Part shown: piece after piece, positions 18,001 through 36,000 of the stretch
Layout of the letters: the number at the start of each line of letters is the position of its first letter
Position numbering within the stretch: position 1 is the stretch's first letter
Assembly: GCA_965541585.1 (NCBI GenBank)
Contig: CBEUCH010000008.1
Coordinates: 64,001-128,000 of the forward strand
DNA from: an uncultured bacterium
Lineage (GTDB): Bacteria; Zixibacteria; MSB-5A5; UBA10806
Direction of reading: 5' to 3'
Length of the DNA: 64,000 nt
Made by a program: the position numbers

Positions 18001-21000
18001 CGGTATAGCCTTTTCCTCAGATGAGGTAGTCTGCTCCATGGGAAATCTATTCGGGGTCTTCTGTTTGAACGAGAATAGCGGCATCTCAAATTCTGTGGGA
18101 TCCGCGATGGCTTATCTCGAAAAAGGGGGGCTTATTCAATTCGAGAAGGCGGGCAGTATCGTGCCAACCTCGCTGGGAATCATCGCTTGCTCGACAGGAT
18201 TCTCAGTGGGATCGATTATCAGGATCAATGAGACGCTCGATAGATGTATAATAAAAGAACCGTTAGAGTGGCTCTATTTCGCTTTCGGCCTGAGCGAATG
18301 GTCGAAGACAGGTGGATTTTATAATCCGAGAGGCGCATCAGATACTGTTTTGCTTCATCAGATCGATGAGTTAACCGAGGAGTTGTCTGTTCGGTCAGAG
18401 TATATTGCATCGCAGGTGAAATCTTATAAAGAGCGGTCGGTTGTGCGATCGTTATCATCGTTTCTGTTCGCGCTGGAGTGGGTCGCCGGCAGGCCGACTC
18501 GTGAAATGGAGATCGCCTTTAACAAGGGCAGCGGAGGACTCAAACGCGACGCACGGACATTATCCTGGATTCTGACAGCAATCGAAAAGGTCATTCGCAG
18601 TGAGGAATCGGCGTCCGAATCATATAATATGGTCGCCGGTGAACTGAATCAACTTGCTGCCAGAATGAGACATGGTGTCATCGCAGCGATGTTGCCTCTG
18701 GCGAGGATTCTCGATATCGACAGAGAATTTGTTCAGCGGCTTTATAACATGGGGATCAGGTCGGTGGATGATTTTCACGATATCGATTATTCGGTTCTAA
18801 AGGAGATGTTACCGCTAACCGTTGTTGAGAAAATCCAGAATCGTCTCAAGAACTATAATCAGCGAATATCATCGCCGGATAAGCTGACTCCCTCTCAGAA
18901 AAGGAGTGAAGTTTTATTCACCGGCAAAAACAGAAAGCTCTTGAGGGAAATAAATATCTGCGGCAAATCAATATTCTTACAGGCGAAATTATATTCTTAT
19001 ATGCAAAAACTCTGGTGGGGGAATCTGTCGGAAAATCCCTGGATACACAAAGAGAGCCTCGAACCGGGGATCAACCAGGCGAAATATGTAAGCAAGCTTA
19101 GAAGAATATTGAAAGAAAGCGGTATAAAGATAGAGATAGTTTCCAACGGCCGCGGATATTATCGCTTGGTTCTACATAGCTGAGTCTATAGTCCCATTGC
19201 AATTCGCCGGTTTCCATGTCGGGAGCACAGATTTTCTATCCTTCAGGATGGAAGCTGCAGCGATATCCTGAGTGTATAACCTGTCCAACCTGCATTTGTT
19301 TTGCTAAAGTCTTTTCCAATGGATAATTGAAATCAGCGAAAGCACCGCGCAAAGGAGCTCCGATGTTCGGATTGCCGTTTCTAAAAAAAAGGGAAAATAG
19401 AAAGAAAAGCCCTCGCGCCGACCTGGCCCAGCGAGCGAAGATCATCAAGCCTCGCCGTCCCCGGCATAAGGCGGGAGCATCATTGAAGGATGACTATGCC
19501 CGGATCAGCTTCCCGGCCGATTACGGCTATTATGAGAGAATCACACTGTATCGATTCCTGCGGGAGCAGATTCCGGTGGTCAATGGCGCCATTTGGATCT
19601 GGGTACGCCTCTGCTCCAGCCCCATGGAATTTCACCCGTCCGCCAGCGACCGGGAGGCGGATATTACAAGACTGAATTCGGCCGTAGATGATCTCAACCT
19701 GCGCCTGGCGCCGAATCCCTATTATAAATCGGGCGGGCTGGAACGGCTCTCCGATCTTTTCTTCAGTTCATTATTTGTCGATGGGGCCTTTGCAGGCAAT
19801 ATCGAGGTCGGCAGCGACGGCCGGCTGATCGGCTTTTTGCCGGTCGACGTGCGAAAATTGACGTTCGAATACGACGATGGCTGGAAGATTTATCATGAAT
19901 CAGATGAGGGCAAGAGGCTCTTGGATCCGGCCAACTTCATCTATATACCGCTGGACGATGACTCCATCGATCCGCGCGGAAAAAGCATCCTCCAGTCCAT
20001 AGGCTTCGTCAGCCGTCTGGAACAGAAGCTTCTGGATGATATGCAGAAATCACAGGAGAAGGCGGGATATAACAGGCTTCACGTCCTGATCAACAAACCG
20101 GAACGCCGGATGGGCGAATCGGAGAACGATTTTCACGATCGCGCCAACAGCTATTTCGATGATACGGTTGGCCTTTTCTCCGGCATAAAGCCCTCGGATT
20201 CGGTAGTGACCTGGGATGATATCGAAATCAAGACTGTGGCGCCGTCTGGAGGGGCAACAGCGGCAACCCACTCGTGGTACCTGGCGCACCGGGCCGTTGT
20301 GGAGGATGTTTGCGCCGGCGTTCATCTCGATCCCTTTATGTTGGGATATTCATACGGCAGCACCAGGAGCTGGGCGCAATTCAAATTCGAACTGGTTTTA
20401 AGGCAGGTGATTTCCGTCCAGAAGCTGGCGGTTCGATTCTTCGAGTGGCTCGTTAATACGCATCTCACCCTGTCAGGAGTAAACCTGAAAGCCTCCGTCA
20501 ATTTCAATAACGACAGGATAGACGGCGCTCTCGAGAGATACCAATCGGAACATGAGGAGGCTCGCCGCGTGCTGGAATTATACGAGGCCGGATTGTTTTC
20601 CAAGGAGGAGGCCCGCTCCCGCGTTTTCCGAATCGAGGGGGATAATTGATATGGCCGGTGCCGACTGCACAATCTGCGAATCGCCGTTGCGAACAGAGAT
20701 CGAGAGCAAAGATACCGCCTGGAAGGCCGACAGGACCATTCAGTGGGCAAGAAAGCATGGCGTGCGAATAAGCAGGTTTTCACTGGCCAGGCATCGCACT
20801 AACCATTTAAATTCGACGAGAATTAGCGCAAAGAAAAAACCTCCGGATAAAATCGTCGAACCTCAGGCCAAAACGAAGCAAATAAAAAGTGATGCCTCCA
20901 TTAGCCCGAATCCCGTATCGGATCTGGAATTTCTCAATGCGGTACGCGACAGGGTTTATGAAAAATTAAAAGAAGGCGAATTCGACCTGAAGATCGAATC

Positions 21001-33000: not shown

Positions 33001-36000
33001 CTTGGATTCCCATCTCTGGACGCCGATCATAGAAGGCAATACACATCATATCTATTTTGCCAGCAGGGGAGATTCCGCCAGCGCTCCTTACGTCGATCTC
33101 GACGTTGACGATGTCACCAGCTACGGCCCCGAGCATGTCACCATACACGACGAGTATCCCGGTACCTATACGTATGCTATTTACCACTACGCAGGAGCGG
33201 GCGATATCTCGGTATCGGAAGCCGAGGTAGGTGTCCTCCAACCCGACGGTACGGTTGAAGCTTTCATGGTACCCGAAGCCGTGGCGTCGGCCAACTGGTG
33301 GTGGCATGTCTGCACCATCGACGGCACTACCGGCGTGGTTACTCCCATAAATATTATCTCTGCAGATCCACCGCTGCCATATGCGTTTCCGGAGAACGTG
33401 GCAAAGGTAGAGATAGACTAAAGACCTTTTTTACTAAAATAGCAAACTGCCGAGAGACGGTTCAGGCGCTCCGGAAACCTCAATTCCGGGCGCCTTTCCA
33501 TTTCAGGCTCGCTATCCTCTTATTCTACTTGATGTTGTCTGAACTATTTTCGTTGCAATATGTCGGATTTTTCTTATATTCCATGTGGAGAACGGAAGGT
33601 TATGAGATTTCTTATTTCAGCCGGCATTTTCTTATTTTTGGTGAGAGTTGTTTTCGCCCAAGTCCCCTATGACAACATCCCCGGCTGGTTTTCTGCAGAG
33701 GATAATTTGTATGGAACCGGCGCCGCAATTGACGATATAAACGGCGATGGTTACCCGGATCTGGCCATCTCCAACGGCAACGATATAATTCAGGCGCCAA
33801 ACGTCGCCTATATTAATTCGGGTGGATTCCTGCCCCAGACGGCAACCTGGGTTTCGGAGAATATCGCATATTCTGGACATTGTGAATTGGGGGATTACGA
33901 TTCCGATGGATTCCCTGAATTGGCGGTATCGACCTATATCTCGCCCGGCTGGGGTGCAGCGCAGGTACATATCTACGACAATATCGATGGTGTTCTGGAG
34001 AATTCGCCGTCGTGGATATCAACGGATATGGTGCATTCCTTCAGGCTGGCCTGGGGCGATGCAGACGGCGACGGGGACCTCGATCTGGCCGTGGCGACCG
34101 GCGAAGCGTACAACTTTTATTATGAGTCAAACCTCGTTTTCTTCAATAACGATGGTGTTCTCGAGACCGAAGCCGGATGGTCATCTGCGAATCTCGACGC
34201 CTGCTATGATGTCCGCTGGGTGGATATCGAACTGGACGGTGATCTCGATCTGGTTTTCTGCGAATCCGGTGGTCCGCTCAAGATCTATTTCAATCATGGC
34301 GATTATATTGCGACCGATCCCGGGTGGCTGAGCGAGGGCGACGATAATTACAACTCTCTCGATATTGCCGATATCAACGGTGATGGCTATCCTGATCTGG
34401 CTACGGCGGCAAATACGCAGTCGGGCGGGTCCGGGCGATTCAAAATCTTTCTCAACGTCGATGGCACGCTTGAGACAACCCCTTTCTGGACATCCTTCAG
34501 TACCGGGTACGGTTCCGAAACGGCATTTTCGGACGTGGACAGCGATGGCGATTACGATTTGATCTGTGGCCGCTGGTGGGGTCTGGTCTACGTTTATCTG
34601 AATAACGACGGTAGTTTCAATCGGAATCCGGATTGGAACAGCTCCGGCTCTTATAGTAGCGTTATCGAAAATATAGTATTTGGCGATTTTAACAAGGGCG
34701 CGGAGAGAAGCCGTCGTGAAGTATTCTTAGATCCAGTCAATAGTCTTGTCATGCTCCCGTACCGTCAGTTGGCGGCGGTCGACAGTGTCAGGATGGATGG
34801 GGTGATCCTCGAACCCGGAGAATACTGCATAAACCTCTGGGACGGGTGGGTCTCCCTCGGACTCCCGGTCCTGGACTCAGTGGAAGTTTTCTATCGCCAT
34901 TCGATTTCAAAGGACATGGCTGTTTCAAACTGGGACAGAGAAACCTATATATTTCACAATACGAATCCGGGCTTTATACCAGGGGACGCTAACGATTCCG
35001 GCGACCTGGATGGTCTGGATCTGGTGTTCCTGGTGAACTATCTGAAGGGGGAGCAAGCCCCTGAGCCGCTGCTGGCGGCGGACGTAAATGGTGATTGCAC
35101 TGTCAATATCGCAGATATGGTCTATTTGCTGGATTATTTTAAGGGGGGGGCCGCCCCTCTGGCCGGTGATTGCGACTGAGAGAATAAAATAAATATTGGT
35201 TTCGTTCTTTTCGCCGGGGGAACATATCCGTAGATGGTTTGCTATAAACTTCAGGGTAGGGGTAATGGCGATTATTCAGTTGAGTTTTTACGACTTCCCT
35301 GCGGTTCCGGTTGGGAGCGGGAAGACTTGACGCAGGTTATCAGATATTCTATAATCTGTCGCCGGGAACGCCGCCGTGGGGTGGAGAAGATAGGAATATT
35401 CTGATTTAGAGGCGGAGAATTGACTAAGGGACTTGTTTATACGATCGTTTTCTTTCTGGCGGGACCTGCTCTGGCGCAAGACAGGAGTGAAACGGTTAAA
35501 GAAAATGTATGCTATACCGAGAGCATCAGCGCCGCGAGGGGTACCTCCTTCGCCGTAAGAGTATATGTTAACAACGTGGATACCCTGGCGGGCTTGCAGG
35601 TGCCGATCTATTATCGTTCCGACGATGTGAATTTGCTTAGCGATTCGGTAACCTTCGATGAGTCCCGTTGCCATGGCTTTTCAATGAGTTTTTTCAAGAT
35701 CGATCCCCACGAGAAAGTGGTATTTTTCTCATTATTGAACATCGGCGATCCCGAAAAGGGTGCGCCTGTATTGTATCCCGGAGACGGTCTGGTAGCGAAG
35801 CTGTGGTTCACTGCTCCCGGGGACAGCGGTTCGGGCGATGTGATATTGGAAAGCGGCCCCCATGCCTTTCTCCCGGATGATCGAATCAACTACGGATATC
35901 TTTTCTGGACACCAGCCGCGATGCAGGTGAAATGCAATTATTCACCGGGAAATATTACTTTGAAATAGAGATTGGGTAGGTTATAATCGAATGTTCGCTG

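Follow-up and report, generated by a model that had tools for sequence, protein, structure and literature searches.

Phage-derived head and packaging genes retained across Zixibacteria: a candidate particle system resembling gene transfer agents

Several described systems come close to the gene cluster analysed here, which lies in a window (the whole stretch of DNA analysed, 64,000 nucleotides) from an uncultured bacterium of the phylum Zixibacteria. One is the gene transfer agent (GTA) of the Rhodobacter capsulatus type (RcGTA) in Alphaproteobacteria. Like RcGTA, the Zixibacteria cluster is a chromosomal set of phage head and packaging genes that lacks functions for replication and integration. 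It is inherited vertically throughout a large clade, evolves under purifying selection, and may have its genes spread over several loci. An HK97-fold capsid, a T4-type large terminase and a gp6-type adaptor are also common to both. However, the two are not orthologous: against the HK97 families, the major capsid protein (MCP) scores 21.1 bits for a cut-off of 27.5, and the protease 16.5 bits for a cut-off of 59. The Zixibacteria cluster also lacks a siphovirus tail module (tube, tape measure and distal tail proteins), places the portal before the terminase, and carries decoration and propeller/CBM proteins. It belongs to another host phylum, and its particles and gene transfer are putative.

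The PBSX/PBSZ-type defective prophages of Bacillus, known from only a few species, have contractile tails. The resemblance to them, read on the Zixibacteria side from gene content, lies in host-encoded phage-like particles that do not replicate and are filled with host DNA; a tail sheath/tube gene is absent from the Zixibacteria cluster. The capsid-forming PICIs (cf-PICIs), phage satellites with head and packaging genes of their own, in turn encode a head, portal, protease, terminase and connector and no long tail, as does the Zixibacteria cluster. They are mobile: they carry an integrase, functions for regulation and replication, and a small terminase specific for their own DNA, whereas the Zixibacteria cluster has none of these and follows the host tree. 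Finally, the cluster resembles T7-like podophages such as Legionella phage LME-1 (PMC12407071) in its minimal post-capsid inventory: a decoration protein, an adaptor, a large protein rich in beta structure and proteins resembling fibres, with no tube or tape measure. On the other hand, neither a nozzle nor a fibre homologue was recognized in the Zixibacteria cluster, and its beta-propeller protein (BNR481) is closer to free lectins and lyases than to any nozzle. The cluster has no internal core or ejection proteins and no genes for replication, and it is not a virus.

Gene content and limits of the cluster

The cluster spans window positions 19327-31955 on the forward strand, in the order portal, large terminase (TerL), prohead protease, decoration protein, MCP, beta-propeller protein, adaptor and a hypervariable pair, with small genes of unknown role besides. 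Its features, and those next to it, are as follows.

19327..20649, +: portal protein, 440 aa as the longest ORF (earlier start 19363); phrog_3753, 1.2e-25
20552..21136, +: p194, between portal and TerL, in families f1 and f2 only
21198..22538, +: large terminase, T4-type Terminase_6N ATPase plus nuclease; phrog_2, 2.2e-26; PF03237, 1.8e-5
22521..22982, +: hairpin and non-coding spacer (445 bp) with a promoter-like site
22521-22542, +: terminator-like hairpin at the TerL stop
22535-22564, +: promoter-like site after TerL
22983..23789, +: serine protease of the prohead (capsid maturation), in a short form that lacks the ligase-like extension; phrog_16951, 4.3e-13
23790..24101, +: p103, conserved small protein; 14/20 loci by tblastn; omega 0.087
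24102..24380, +: p92, small and poorly conserved; 63% identity within the genus; omega 0.23
24435..24857, +: head decoration-like virion protein; phrog_4588, 3.2e-9; phrog_122, 8e-4
24850..25986, +: MCP, HK97 fold family; phrog_3922, 1.1e-64; PF25209 (Phage_capsid_4), 7e-7
26009..27454, +: BNR481, beta-propeller with Asp-box repeats and a C-terminal beta-sandwich (CBM-like)
27465..27836, +: p123, conserved small protein; 19/20 loci; omega 0.154
27836..28660, +: p274, predicted head-tail adaptor; helical bundle of gp6/gp15 type, interrupted by an Ig-like beta domain (residues 19-171)
28702..29799, +: p365, hypervariable mosaic gene
29804..31540, +: p578, conserved in the C-terminal ~200 aa, which include CarboxypepD_reg, and variable in the N-terminal part
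31554..31955, +: p133, small conserved protein, last of the conserved block; 8/20 loci, in several families, by tblastn
31983..32010, +: strong intrinsic-terminator-like hairpin (10-bp stem, 5 GC pairs, then TTTTATT)
32180..33421, +: p413, downstream of the terminator; family f1 loci only, 49-57% identity

The survey's finding had been a phage-like structural module at 19363..33421. Its gene content stands, and the PHROG matches (portal, TerL, decoration-like protein, major head protein) and Pfam matches (Terminase_6N, Phage_capsid_4) were re-obtained at the values given above. Its limits shift at both ends: the longest portal ORF opens at 19327, and the conserved unit more likely ends near 32010, because a terminator-like hairpin lies 3' of p133 and the last gene, p413, occurs only in f1. 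This hairpin is probably the end of a head operon. Searches with Pfam, PHROG and further family profiles gave no match for p413, and its membership of the particle system is doubtful.

A second boundary, between a packaging operon and the head operon, probably lies at 22521..22982, where the spacer holds only short ORFs (29-69 aa). In support of this, the system consists of two transcription-unit-sized modules (portal and TerL; protease through the last small protein) that are physically apart in other genomes. Of 20 loci, 13 have the portal-TerL pair next to the head block; elsewhere the pair lies at 14 kb (G206), 18 kb and inverted (G261), 90 kb (G252), 102 kb (G276), 108 kb (G208) or 411 kb (G171), which agrees with the earlier remark that the two can be separate. 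Host genes are inserted inside the head block in two f15 loci.

The surroundings are those of a host locus. As reported before, no integrase, replication, lysogeny or lysis genes lie beside the cluster, and the flanks are ordinary host genes. No tRNA, Rfam match or att-like flanking repeat was found at the cluster, nor any lysis gene or regulator within or adjoining it. Sheath, tube and tape-measure genes had no match in it by Pfam, PHROG or further profile searches; a related true phage has all three. Composition had been described as matching the host; it is host-like but at the high end, with G+C of 0.508 (19327-31955) vs 0.489 for the genome (96th percentile of same-size genome segments) and a tetranucleotide distance at the 76th percentile.

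Of the packaging genes, the portal has 45 invariant columns in 19 orthologues (omega 0.085 against a same-genus genome), and the Walker A (G53-S59) and Walker B (D160-E161) motifs and acidic residues of TerL are invariant in an alignment of 18 orthologues (omega 0.090). No small terminase was identified in the cluster. The intervening p194 (omega 0.26), confined by tblastn to f1/f2 loci, matches only PHROG families of unknown function (2.9e-5); that it is a small terminase is possible but unsupported.

Among the head genes, the protease (omega 0.17) belongs to a family that occupies the portal-MCP interval in related phages as well, and its match to TIGR01543 is weak (0.0073, under the cut-off). 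Alignment with phage homologues upholds the invariant His and Ser claimed for it (His83, Ser137) within a larger invariant set: H83, E135, S137, C147, C150, C157, H159, E179 and S181. In two Zixibacteria families (f16, f17) the protease is fused to a LigD-type DNA ligase that appears intact; four other families have a degenerate ligase part, and the window has none. This fusion is a new observation in Zixibacteria. The small p103 is a candidate scaffold or head-completion protein with no family match (Pfam, PHROG and further profile searches), and p92 likewise has none (Pfam, PHROG). The decoration-like protein occurs in 20/20 loci with 53-82% identity across the phylum (omega 0.041). The MCP (omega 0.053) is 57-65% identical to other families vs 62-70% for RpoB; that is, it diverges almost as slowly as RpoB.

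Past the capsid, BNR481 is present in 20/20 loci (omega 0.089). The beta-propeller plus CBM model was reproduced (AF2 pLDDT 90.1), but the LME-1 portal-tail chain earlier named as its best match, 9efk_M, ranks sixth by Foldseek, after sialidases with CBM (top matches, E 2e-11). It is absent from the best 50 VIA-align matches, which are led by lectins and lyases (ulvan lyase, Photorhabdus lectins; Z about 26). Its look-alikes among viral proteins have sialidase domains or are tail spikes, and generic lectin/sialidase/lyase propellers match better than any phage tail chain. By fold and position only, BNR481 is a candidate glycan-binding spike or receptor-binding protein.

The identification of p274 (AF2 pLDDT 86.4; 19/20 loci; omega 0.088) as a predicted head-tail adaptor is new here. 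At least 23 of its best 50 VIA matches are phage neck or connector entries, its matches include portal-tail entries of the podophages GP4, A4, Carin-1 and P-SCSP1u, and the Atlas lead is Phage_Gp19 at 0.90. The wide VIA search gave the Mu neck (Z 9.6), T4 gp13/14 (9.1), the GP4 portal-tail (8.7), HK97 gp6 (8.6) and RcGTA virion chain 6tba_2A (7.6), with the adaptor scores (Z 7-9.6) falling where helical bundles can match by chance. Its neighbour p123 is a candidate neck or tail component: it has 79 database relatives (every source name given is Zixibacteria), no Pfam domain in any of them and an empty PDB profile search.

The next gene, p365, is only 30-37% identical to its counterpart in a same-genus genome vs 74-93% for neighbouring genes. 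Its halves match different relatives, and unrelated ORFs of 160-540 aa take its position in other families, which makes it a candidate specificity (receptor-binding) determinant. Conservation of p578 (omega 0.14) is limited to residues ~375-578, in 16/20 loci, with PF13620 at residues 393-463 (5.1e-8); its Atlas neighbours are viral, and it is a candidate fibre or tail protein. The last gene, p133, shows 64-72% identity within the family.

Distribution, descent and selection

The phylum-wide occurrence described by the survey was reproduced. The MCP occurs in 255/285 Zixibacteria genomes, in 189/198 high-quality ones and in 23/24 of the order (the window's genome, G000, counted), nearly always as one match; members of the genus are 92-93% identical and those of the family 78-86%. 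TerL is present in 200/208 genomes at least 90% complete and in 190/198 high-quality ones. Gene order is conserved in 20 loci from 10 families. Many of the assemblies compared are fragmented.

Descent follows the host, as had been claimed. A tree of six concatenated cluster proteins from 19 genomes has 14 of 16 splits in common with the RpoB tree (patristic r = 0.88, Mantel p = 1e-4) and recovers all 10 families. Selection is strongly purifying (omega 0.041-0.26 for 12 genes, within the genus, at unsaturated dS of 0.36-1.3). Flanking host genes differ between families and so lend no support to a fixed ancestral site. The system is dispensable, since TerL was not found in a closed, 99% complete genome (G029), and f13, f14 and G122 are without the system; G029 keeps the portal and capsid genes with a truncated propeller gene.

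The Zixibacteria capsids form one clade, with an identity gap from 67% to 41% to all other clusters. No close relative was found in viral collections, where no match exceeded 35% identity in IMG/VR or 33% in GenBank phages.

Possible function of the particle

Altogether, gene content and descent suggest a DNA-packaging particle system, GTA-like and probably short-tailed. We think it probable, though far from certain, that a host-owned phage particle system (viriform) was domesticated early in Zixibacteria and has been vertically inherited since, with a GTA-like transfer mechanism; it looks like a new kind of GTA. On a host signal, procapsids would assemble on the portal, be matured by the protease and be filled by the terminase through headful packaging. 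The cargo is probably any host DNA at hand, given that no recognizable small terminase adjoins TerL in most families. In f16 and f17 (not in the window's own family), the LigD-type ligase might be loaded into the head along with the protease. The adaptor would close the portal and hold a short podovirus-like adsorption apparatus made of the lectin-like propeller protein and the fast-evolving p365 and p578, the latter two setting recipient specificity. Released particles would then bring DNA to related cells, as GTAs do.

The same signature (structural and packaging genes only, host-encoded and conserved) would be left by a PBSX-type defective-phage particle that contains DNA but benefits its host by killing competing strains or by another non-transfer effect, with gene delivery unselected. 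Hypervariable adsorption-type proteins (p365, p578) also fit strain-specific killing, and the structural matches of p274 include YqbG, a Bacillus subtilis protein from a defective-prophage region. PBSX-like killers have long contractile tails, though, and Pfam, PHROG and further profile searches found no sheath, tube or tape-measure gene in the cluster; phylum-wide retention at an RpoB-like rate is also unusual for weapon systems with fast turnover. We consider this reading unlikely.

Distinctly unlikely, in our view, is a host-owned particle with a role in neither transfer nor killing, such as DNA export for biofilm matrix, storage or a protein/DNA nanocompartment. The propeller/CBM protein could bind matrix glycans, but conserved terminase ATPase and nuclease motifs, a portal and an adaptor, which a sealed compartment would not need, speak for packaged DNA and a delivery-competent vertex.

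A chromosomally fixed, tail-less capsid system that borrows the tails of infecting phages in the manner of cf-PICIs, either as a vehicle for host DNA or as a defence that disrupts phage assembly, would account for a head, packaging motor and head-tail adaptor with no recognizable tube, sheath or tape measure. In an unverified 'Bacteriophage sp.' record, a related head-only set (TerS-TerL-portal-protease-MCP) lies amid ABC-transporter genes. Yet the Zixibacteria cluster bears no integrase, replication or excision gene or other sign of mobility, its inheritance is strictly vertical, and it is unlikely that a whole phylum would rely on a single type of tail. Moreover, five post-capsid genes are conserved across families and under selection, with two fast-evolving adsorption-like genes in the same operon, which suggests that the system has its own distal apparatus. 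We regard borrowed tails as quite improbable.

That the cluster is an ordinary prophage, a decaying remnant or a phage co-speciating with its hosts is scarcely credible: every recognizable gene is of phage origin and the capsid gene has relatives in true phages, but this is contradicted, as the survey had held for a prophage, by the missing integrase, att, tRNA, replication, lysogeny and lysis functions, single copies in 189/198 high-quality genomes, omega of 0.04-0.26, modules up to 411 kb apart with host genes inserted between them, the RpoB-congruent tree and the lack of a close copy in IMG/VR or GenBank phages.

A relative in a second phylum

Distribution outside the phylum, left aside by the survey, is now partly answered: the Zixibacteria capsid clade stands apart, and a second phylum has a relative of independent derivation that is conserved and dispersed in a similar way, which is a new observation. 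This is the phylum of G285, and NCBI lists one member protein under Ca. Hinthialibacter antarcticus. In both systems the MCP, decoration protein, protease and portal fall into the same PHROG families. Both are mostly single copy (in the second phylum, MCP 29/35, portal 31/35 and Terminase_6N 25/35) and sit between host genes, with modules that are contiguous or dispersed depending on the genome. The second-phylum system differs in gene order (decoration, MCP, x, Dit-like protein, protease), in a terminase of another type (phrog_38) and in an endolysin-like gene inside the cluster of one genome; tblastn found none of BNR481, p274 and p123 there. Its MCP clade is not sister to that of Zixibacteria, which points to separate domestication.

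Gene content and proposed transcription units of the cluster

Every sizeable open reading frame (ORF) between window positions 19327 and 33421 lies on the plus strand. The cluster within this range is of phage origin, and PHROG and Pfam scans put names on five of its ORFs, which are listed here together with their neighbours.

Open reading frames of the cluster and its 3' neighbour (window positions, strand, product)
19327-20649, +, portal (phrog_3753, 1.2e-25)
20552-21136, +, p194, between portal and large terminase
21198-22538, +, large terminase, TerL (phrog_2, 2.2e-26; Terminase_6N, 1.8e-5)
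22983-23789, +, phrog_16951 protein, the putative prohead protease
23790-24101, +, p103
24102-24380, +, p92
24435-24857, +, decoration-like virion protein (phrog_4588, 3.2e-9)
24850-25986, +, major capsid protein, MCP (phrog_3922, 1.1e-64; Phage_capsid_4, 7e-7)
26009-27454, +, BNR481, propeller protein
27465-27836, +, p123
27836-28660, +, p274, candidate head-tail adaptor
28702-29799, +, p365
29804-31540, +, p578
31554-31955, +, p133
32180-33421, +, p413

The MCP falls in the HK97-fold family phrog_3922/PF25209, with phrog_3922 spanning residues 42-374 and PF25209 scoring 30.2 bits against a cut-off of 27. A terminator-like hairpin (22521-22542) overlaps the TerL stop codon and is followed by a 445-bp spacer with a promoter-like site and only short ORFs of 29-69 amino acids; the strongest terminator of the region (31983-32010) lies 3' of p133. 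We therefore read the cluster as two units, one running from the portal (with p194) to the terminase and the other from the protease through p133, ending near 32010. The survey had drawn the cluster as far as p413. Its range holds up to p133 and is doubtful for 32180-33421, which lies beyond the terminator and was detected only in the genome's own family. A sequencing-run search with window 19327-29300 listed no RNA runs, only DNA runs of small share.

As the survey had stated, mobility genes are absent beside the cluster: PHROG and Pfam scans found no integrase, repressor, replication or lysis gene, and the flanks consist of host genes (Hel308-like and MrfA-like helicases, T9SS cargo proteins, an FG-GAP/dockerin protein and type IV pilus genes). 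Scans of the cluster region gave no tRNA and no Rfam match. Att-like repeats were not found around it, and a direct-repeat scan showed only short repeats, taken as chance. The claim of a host-like G+C content needs qualifying, since the value of 0.508 is close to the 0.489 of the genome but sits at the 96th percentile of windows of the same size; tetranucleotide usage is unremarkable (76th percentile).

Distribution, descent and selection across Zixibacteria

The capsid gene is phylum-wide. It has a match in 255 of the 285 genomes (189 of the 198 high-quality ones) and in 118 of the 130 genera, and there is almost never more than one match per genome. TerL is present in 200 of the 208 genomes with a completeness of 90% or more; for the high-quality set the figure is 190 of 198. 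Both genes are missing from families f13 and f14 and from one further genome (G122, 98% complete).

Gene order was compared over 20-kb stretches around the capsid gene in 20 genomes from 10 families. The recurrent order is protease, p103, decoration protein, MCP, BNR481, p274/p123, a variable stretch, the C-terminus of p578 and p133. By tblastn, the decoration protein and BNR481 have matches in all 20 loci, p274 and p123 in 19 each, the protease in 18 and the p578 C-terminus in 16; p123 and p274 stand in the opposite order outside families f1 (that of the window) and f2. Portal and terminase are always neighbours, and no more than 13 of the 20 stretches include the two. That is, the packaging and capsid modules are unlinked in part of the phylum: the distance to the capsid gene, measured from the portal-TerL pair only where the portal too was looked up and otherwise from TerL alone, is 14 kb in G206, 18 kb with inversion in G261, 90 kb in G252, 102 kb in G276, 108 kb in G208 and 411 kb in G171. 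The head block itself is broken up in family f15, where opposite-strand host-type genes (FG-GAP/dockerin and others) stand between MCP, BNR481 and p274 in two loci (L036, L047) that have no protease within the 20-kb stretch. The host genes flanking the cluster differ between families across the 20 loci.

One closed genome of 2.1 Mb (G029; loci L034 and L067) retains portal, protease, decoration protein, MCP, p274 and p123. A search with the terminase protein found no counterpart in it, and its phrog_2 match, located elsewhere, is weak (2.3e-5); phrog_2 is unspecific as a test in apparently TerL-less genomes, matching 11 of 14 control genomes. A dockerin-tailed protein lies 3' of the portal, and the BNR481 orthologue is shortened to 312 amino acids. 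The system may be in decay in this reduced genome.

The survey's view that the cluster has been inherited vertically, under purifying selection, stands up to both a tree comparison and a codon analysis. Six cluster proteins were concatenated for a maximum-likelihood tree, which has 14 of 16 internal splits in common with an RpoB tree of the same 19 genomes; G261 and G177 were left out because their RpoB is fragmented or missing. Where the trees disagree, in four splits, the differences lie in the branching inside f7 and in the positions of f20 and f3. Distances along the two trees (patristic) are correlated (r = 0.88, Mantel p = 1e-4, slope 2.3), and identity to the window's genome across families is 57-65% for MCP, 62-70% for RpoB, 43-54% for terminase and 36-47% for portal. 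Against a genome of the same genus (G251; Nei-Gojobori method, dS 0.36-1.3), omega (dN/dS) lies between 0.04 and 0.26. The values are lowest for the decoration protein (0.041), MCP (0.053) and portal (0.085), followed by p103 (0.087), p274 (0.088), BNR481 (0.089) and terminase (0.090), then p578 (0.14), p123 (0.154) and protease (0.17), and finally p92 (0.23) and p194 (0.26).

Packaging proteins, protease fusions and the genes after the capsid gene

The catalytic motifs of the terminase are intact: 18 orthologues agree at every position of Walker A (G53-S59) and Walker B (D160-E161) and at several acidic residues in the nuclease half. A small terminase was recognised neither in the cluster nor, in most families, adjoining TerL. 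The phrog_16951 protein is accepted here as the probable prohead protease on three grounds. In two related records of phage-like type (L051, L121), its family is found with the portal on one side and the capsid gene on the other; its homologues in those records have weak matches to head-maturation protease families; and H83, E135, S137, E179 and S181 are invariant in an alignment of 15 sequences from Zixibacteria, a second phylum and the two records. The window protein itself matches TIGR01543 weakly (16.5 bits against a cut-off of 59), and a PDB profile search with it gave nothing significant. The same three groups also have in common an invariant, zinc-knuckle-like cluster (C147/C150/C157/H159).

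In families other than f1, f2, f6 and f20, the ORF of the protease measures 479-777 amino acids. The window protease has no ligase extension, a module that is missing in f1 and f2. In G216, of family f16, the extension comprises an ATP-dependent DNA ligase domain (PF01068, 5.8e-29) and a LigD phosphoesterase-like part. Among genomes of at least 90% completeness, strong matches to it occur in 11 of 11 from f16 and 3 of 3 from f17. The ORFs that contain them measure about 565-810 amino acids, some of them being shortened by an internal stop or a contig end, and the fusion adjoins the capsid gene wherever both coordinates are listed.

Protease-ligase fusion loci
L035, 12308-14641, -, protease-ligase fusion
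Further loci for the protease extension: L130-L134; also L037, L038, L039, L040, L041, L043, L044, L045

The ligase motifs (EPKYDG, DGE, FDLLY-type, EGxxxK and KWK) are intact in all six f16/f17 fusions examined; the phosphoesterase HHDLRF motif is kept in four of them, altered in one and lost in one. Families f3, f7, f8 and f10 carry a homologous extension without the motif-I lysine. For the longer proteases, a C-terminal coiled-coil scaffold was considered and rejected, the extension being globular and ligase-derived.

The genes behind the capsid gene were approached mostly through predicted structures. The BNR481 model (pLDDT 90.1) is a beta-propeller with a C-terminal beta-sandwich. The survey had named a chain of the LME-1 portal-tail complex as its best match; the resemblance is there, with 9efk_M at Foldseek rank 6 (E 6e-11, TMq 0.26), but CBM-bearing sialidases lead (E 2e-11). 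With VIA-align, a PL25 ulvan lyase and Photorhabdus lectins come first at Z about 26, and no phage chain appears among the best 50 rows. The viral look-alikes are sialidase-domain and spike-like proteins, together with a viral model annotated as P22 gp10 at rank 50. From its fold and these structural matches, BNR481 is predicted to be a glycan-binding or glycan-cleaving module, and its position and conservation lead us to infer a spike or receptor-binding protein. A T7-type nozzle was rejected, as free lectins and lyases match far better.

The p274 model (pLDDT 86.4) starts with a helix, continues with a beta domain (residues 19-171) and ends in three helices. A wide VIA search of 48,161 representative chains matched it to a Mu neck protein (Z 9.6, rmsd 2.9, 95 aligned), T4 gp13/gp14 (Z 9.1), the portal-tail assemblies of phage GP4 (Z 8.7) and cyanophage A4 (Z 8.6), HK97 gp6 (Z 8.6, rmsd 3.4, 89 of 96 aligned), a virion chain of RcGTA (Z 7.6) and Carin-1 (Z 7.2). 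Neck or connector structures of phages, aligned through the helices, make up at least 23 of the best 50 rows, and Protein Atlas gives Phage_Gp19 as its lead (0.90). Sequence searches (Pfam, PHROG) gave no adaptor match, and in Foldseek the beta domain dominates (a phi812 baseplate chain, E 1.3e-7) and the adaptor is not seen. Since the Z values are moderate, in a range that the tool flags as possibly common among helical bundles, the identification of p274 as a head-tail adaptor carrying an Ig-like insertion is well supported without being certain. When two portal copies (residues 71-433) were modelled together with p274, the prediction scored 0.00, which speaks neither for nor against binding.

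The p123 family has 79 relatives, without a Pfam domain, and the names given for them are of Zixibacteria only. PDB profile searches with p274, p123 and BNR481 gave nothing significant, and tblastn against GenBank phages found no match for p274 or p578. The next two proteins vary strongly: p365 shows 30-37% identity within the genus, its two halves matching different relatives, and conservation of p578 beyond the genus is limited to its last 200-250 residues. Other families have unrelated ORFs of 160-540 amino acids in the p365 position, and their variable-region proteins match almost nothing in PHROG and Pfam apart from Disaggr_repeat in two and CarboxypepD_reg in one.

PHROG and Pfam scans and a further family scan of the cluster found no sheath, tube or tape-measure family; a true 40-kb phage that shares the head-gene families has neck, sheath and tape-measure genes directly 3' of its capsid gene. 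The T7-like LME-1 virion consists of portal, adaptor, nozzle and fibre only (PMC12407071). With an apparent adaptor present and few proteins left, two of them fast-evolving, a short, podophage-like distal apparatus is the most economical reading of the cluster.

Capsid relatives and class of the putative particle

A search of 1.84 billion cluster representatives with the MCP gave 745 matches at E <= 1e-3. The Zixibacteria type is represented among them by one full-length sequence at 67% identity and by fragments, and the next matches reach at most 41%. Relatives in GenBank phages (six records) reach at most 33% identity, and those in IMG/VR (11 loci) 32-35%. In a tree of 84 capsid proteins (FastTree only, midpoint root) the 21 Zixibacteria sequences form one clade with support 99 and short branches, whose sister is a group of nine environmental clusters (the P0005 group). 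An IMG/VR scan with P0005 found nothing, and a metagenome scan for the group returned short contigs only. One such contig with a sister-clade MCP (L129, 2-5620) carries a p274 homologue (28% identity, 5e-18) 4.7 kb after the capsid gene, behind an 855-amino-acid protein without a family match.

Another representative, P0006, has 39% identity to the window MCP, and one member of its cluster is named Ca. Hinthialibacter antarcticus by NCBI. It led to 14 genomic loci, flanked by host genes, in which decoration protein, MCP, one further gene, a Dit-like protein and protease follow one another in this order. In this second phylum, represented by 35 genomes (G285-G319; loci include L052 9052-16347, L104, L105 and L106), the MCP occurs in 29 genomes at 54-91% identity, and the related capsid cluster is single-copy in most of them. 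A portal of the same PHROG family is present in 31 of the 35 genomes and a Terminase_6N protein in 25; the placing of the portal relative to the capsid block differs, the two being adjacent in some genomes, whereas in others the portal is on a different contig or 500 kb off. In one genome the set is contiguous and includes an endolysin-like gene and a terminase of the phrog_38 type. We read the second-phylum system as a probable independent domestication. A single domestication common to both phyla was rejected, as the MCP clades are not sisters in the FastTree-only, midpoint-rooted tree. This parallel system suggests that domestications are commoner than five cases imply, five being the number of independent gene transfer agent (GTA) lineages that, to our knowledge, are recognised, every one of them from cultured organisms.

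One of the two phage-like records, L051 (MT835508.1, 'UNVERIFIED: Bacteriophage sp.'), has a compact TerS-TerL-portal-protease-MCP set followed by four ORFs without a PHROG match. The set is flanked by ABC-transporter genes, and tail genes were not recognised. Instead of a phage, this may be a satellite that forms its own capsids, or a bacterial contig.

As in GTAs, the Zixibacteria genes are host-encoded phage structural and packaging genes without replication, integration or lysogeny functions (only head, packaging and neck genes are present), inherited vertically and under purifying selection. The cluster is not homologous to RcGTA (for the HK97 families of MCP and protease, TIGR01554 at 21.1 bits against a cut-off of 27.5 and TIGR01543 at 16.5 against 59) and, unlike RcGTA with its siphovirus tail module, lacks all portal, tube and tape-measure family matches of that system. 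It resembles capsid-forming PICIs in having head genes without a long tail and differs from them in its vertical inheritance and in the absence of integrase, replication genes and small terminase. An encapsulin nanocompartment differs from the cluster, where portal, terminase and protease are present and conserved. From gene content and descent, the cluster fits a host-owned, phage-derived particle that would still package DNA and carry a delivery-competent vertex: a GTA-like viriform. In this mechanism, cluster proteins would form phage-like particles with a short tail, packaging would be headful and unspecific, p365 and p578 would set recipient specificity, and the particles would carry out gene transfer.

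Against the GTA-like reading, searches of the cluster revealed neither a lysis gene nor a regulator nor a small terminase, some lineages have lost the system, and in G029 TerL was not found and the propeller gene is truncated. Among the rival explanations, a PBSX-like killing particle is unlikely, and a particle with some other function quite unlikely. Tail-less capsids that borrow the tails of infecting phages would agree with the missing sheath, tube and tape-measure families; we hold them to be very unlikely. A plain prophage is extremely improbable, there being no integrase, att site or tRNA, and modules 14-411 kb apart in six genomes.

If the GTA-like reading is true, a host-owned DNA-packaging particle has been retained through the whole history of a widespread sediment phylum, homologous to no known GTA and with a different tail plan. 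This would extend domesticated-virus biology to uncultured lineages and point to a route of gene exchange in anoxic sediments, and about 250 orthologous clusters would offer comparative material on which phage functions are kept, lost or repurposed in domestication. We found no paper connecting Zixibacteria with gene transfer agents, prophage capsids or terminases. The fullest version would make the cluster a sixth, independently evolved kind of GTA, and a first in two respects, its range across an entire uncultured phylum and its podovirus-like short adsorption apparatus. A second phylum would have domesticated a related head separately, and f16/f17 particles would carry an active LigD-type ligase, held in place by the capsid protease, which would bring an end-joining enzyme into the recipient along with the DNA. 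That all of this holds jointly is rather unlikely.

Three further observations concern neighbouring genes in the window. Directly upstream of the portal, 16640-19183 encodes a Hel308-like helicase (PHROG 'Holliday junction branch migration helicase', 2.9e-67), probably a host gene, since other families do not have it in synteny with the cluster. Two adjacent genes whose conservation is limited to family f1 (35420-35968 and 36012-36644) have a 78-nt stretch in common at 71% identity (35678-35755 and 36354-36431), from which we take them to be tandem paralogues. Finally, 14 kb downstream, 47727-53115 holds a type IV pilus set (GspH-like pilin, PilM, PilN, PilO, an AMIN-domain protein and secretin), machinery of a kind that could take up DNA.
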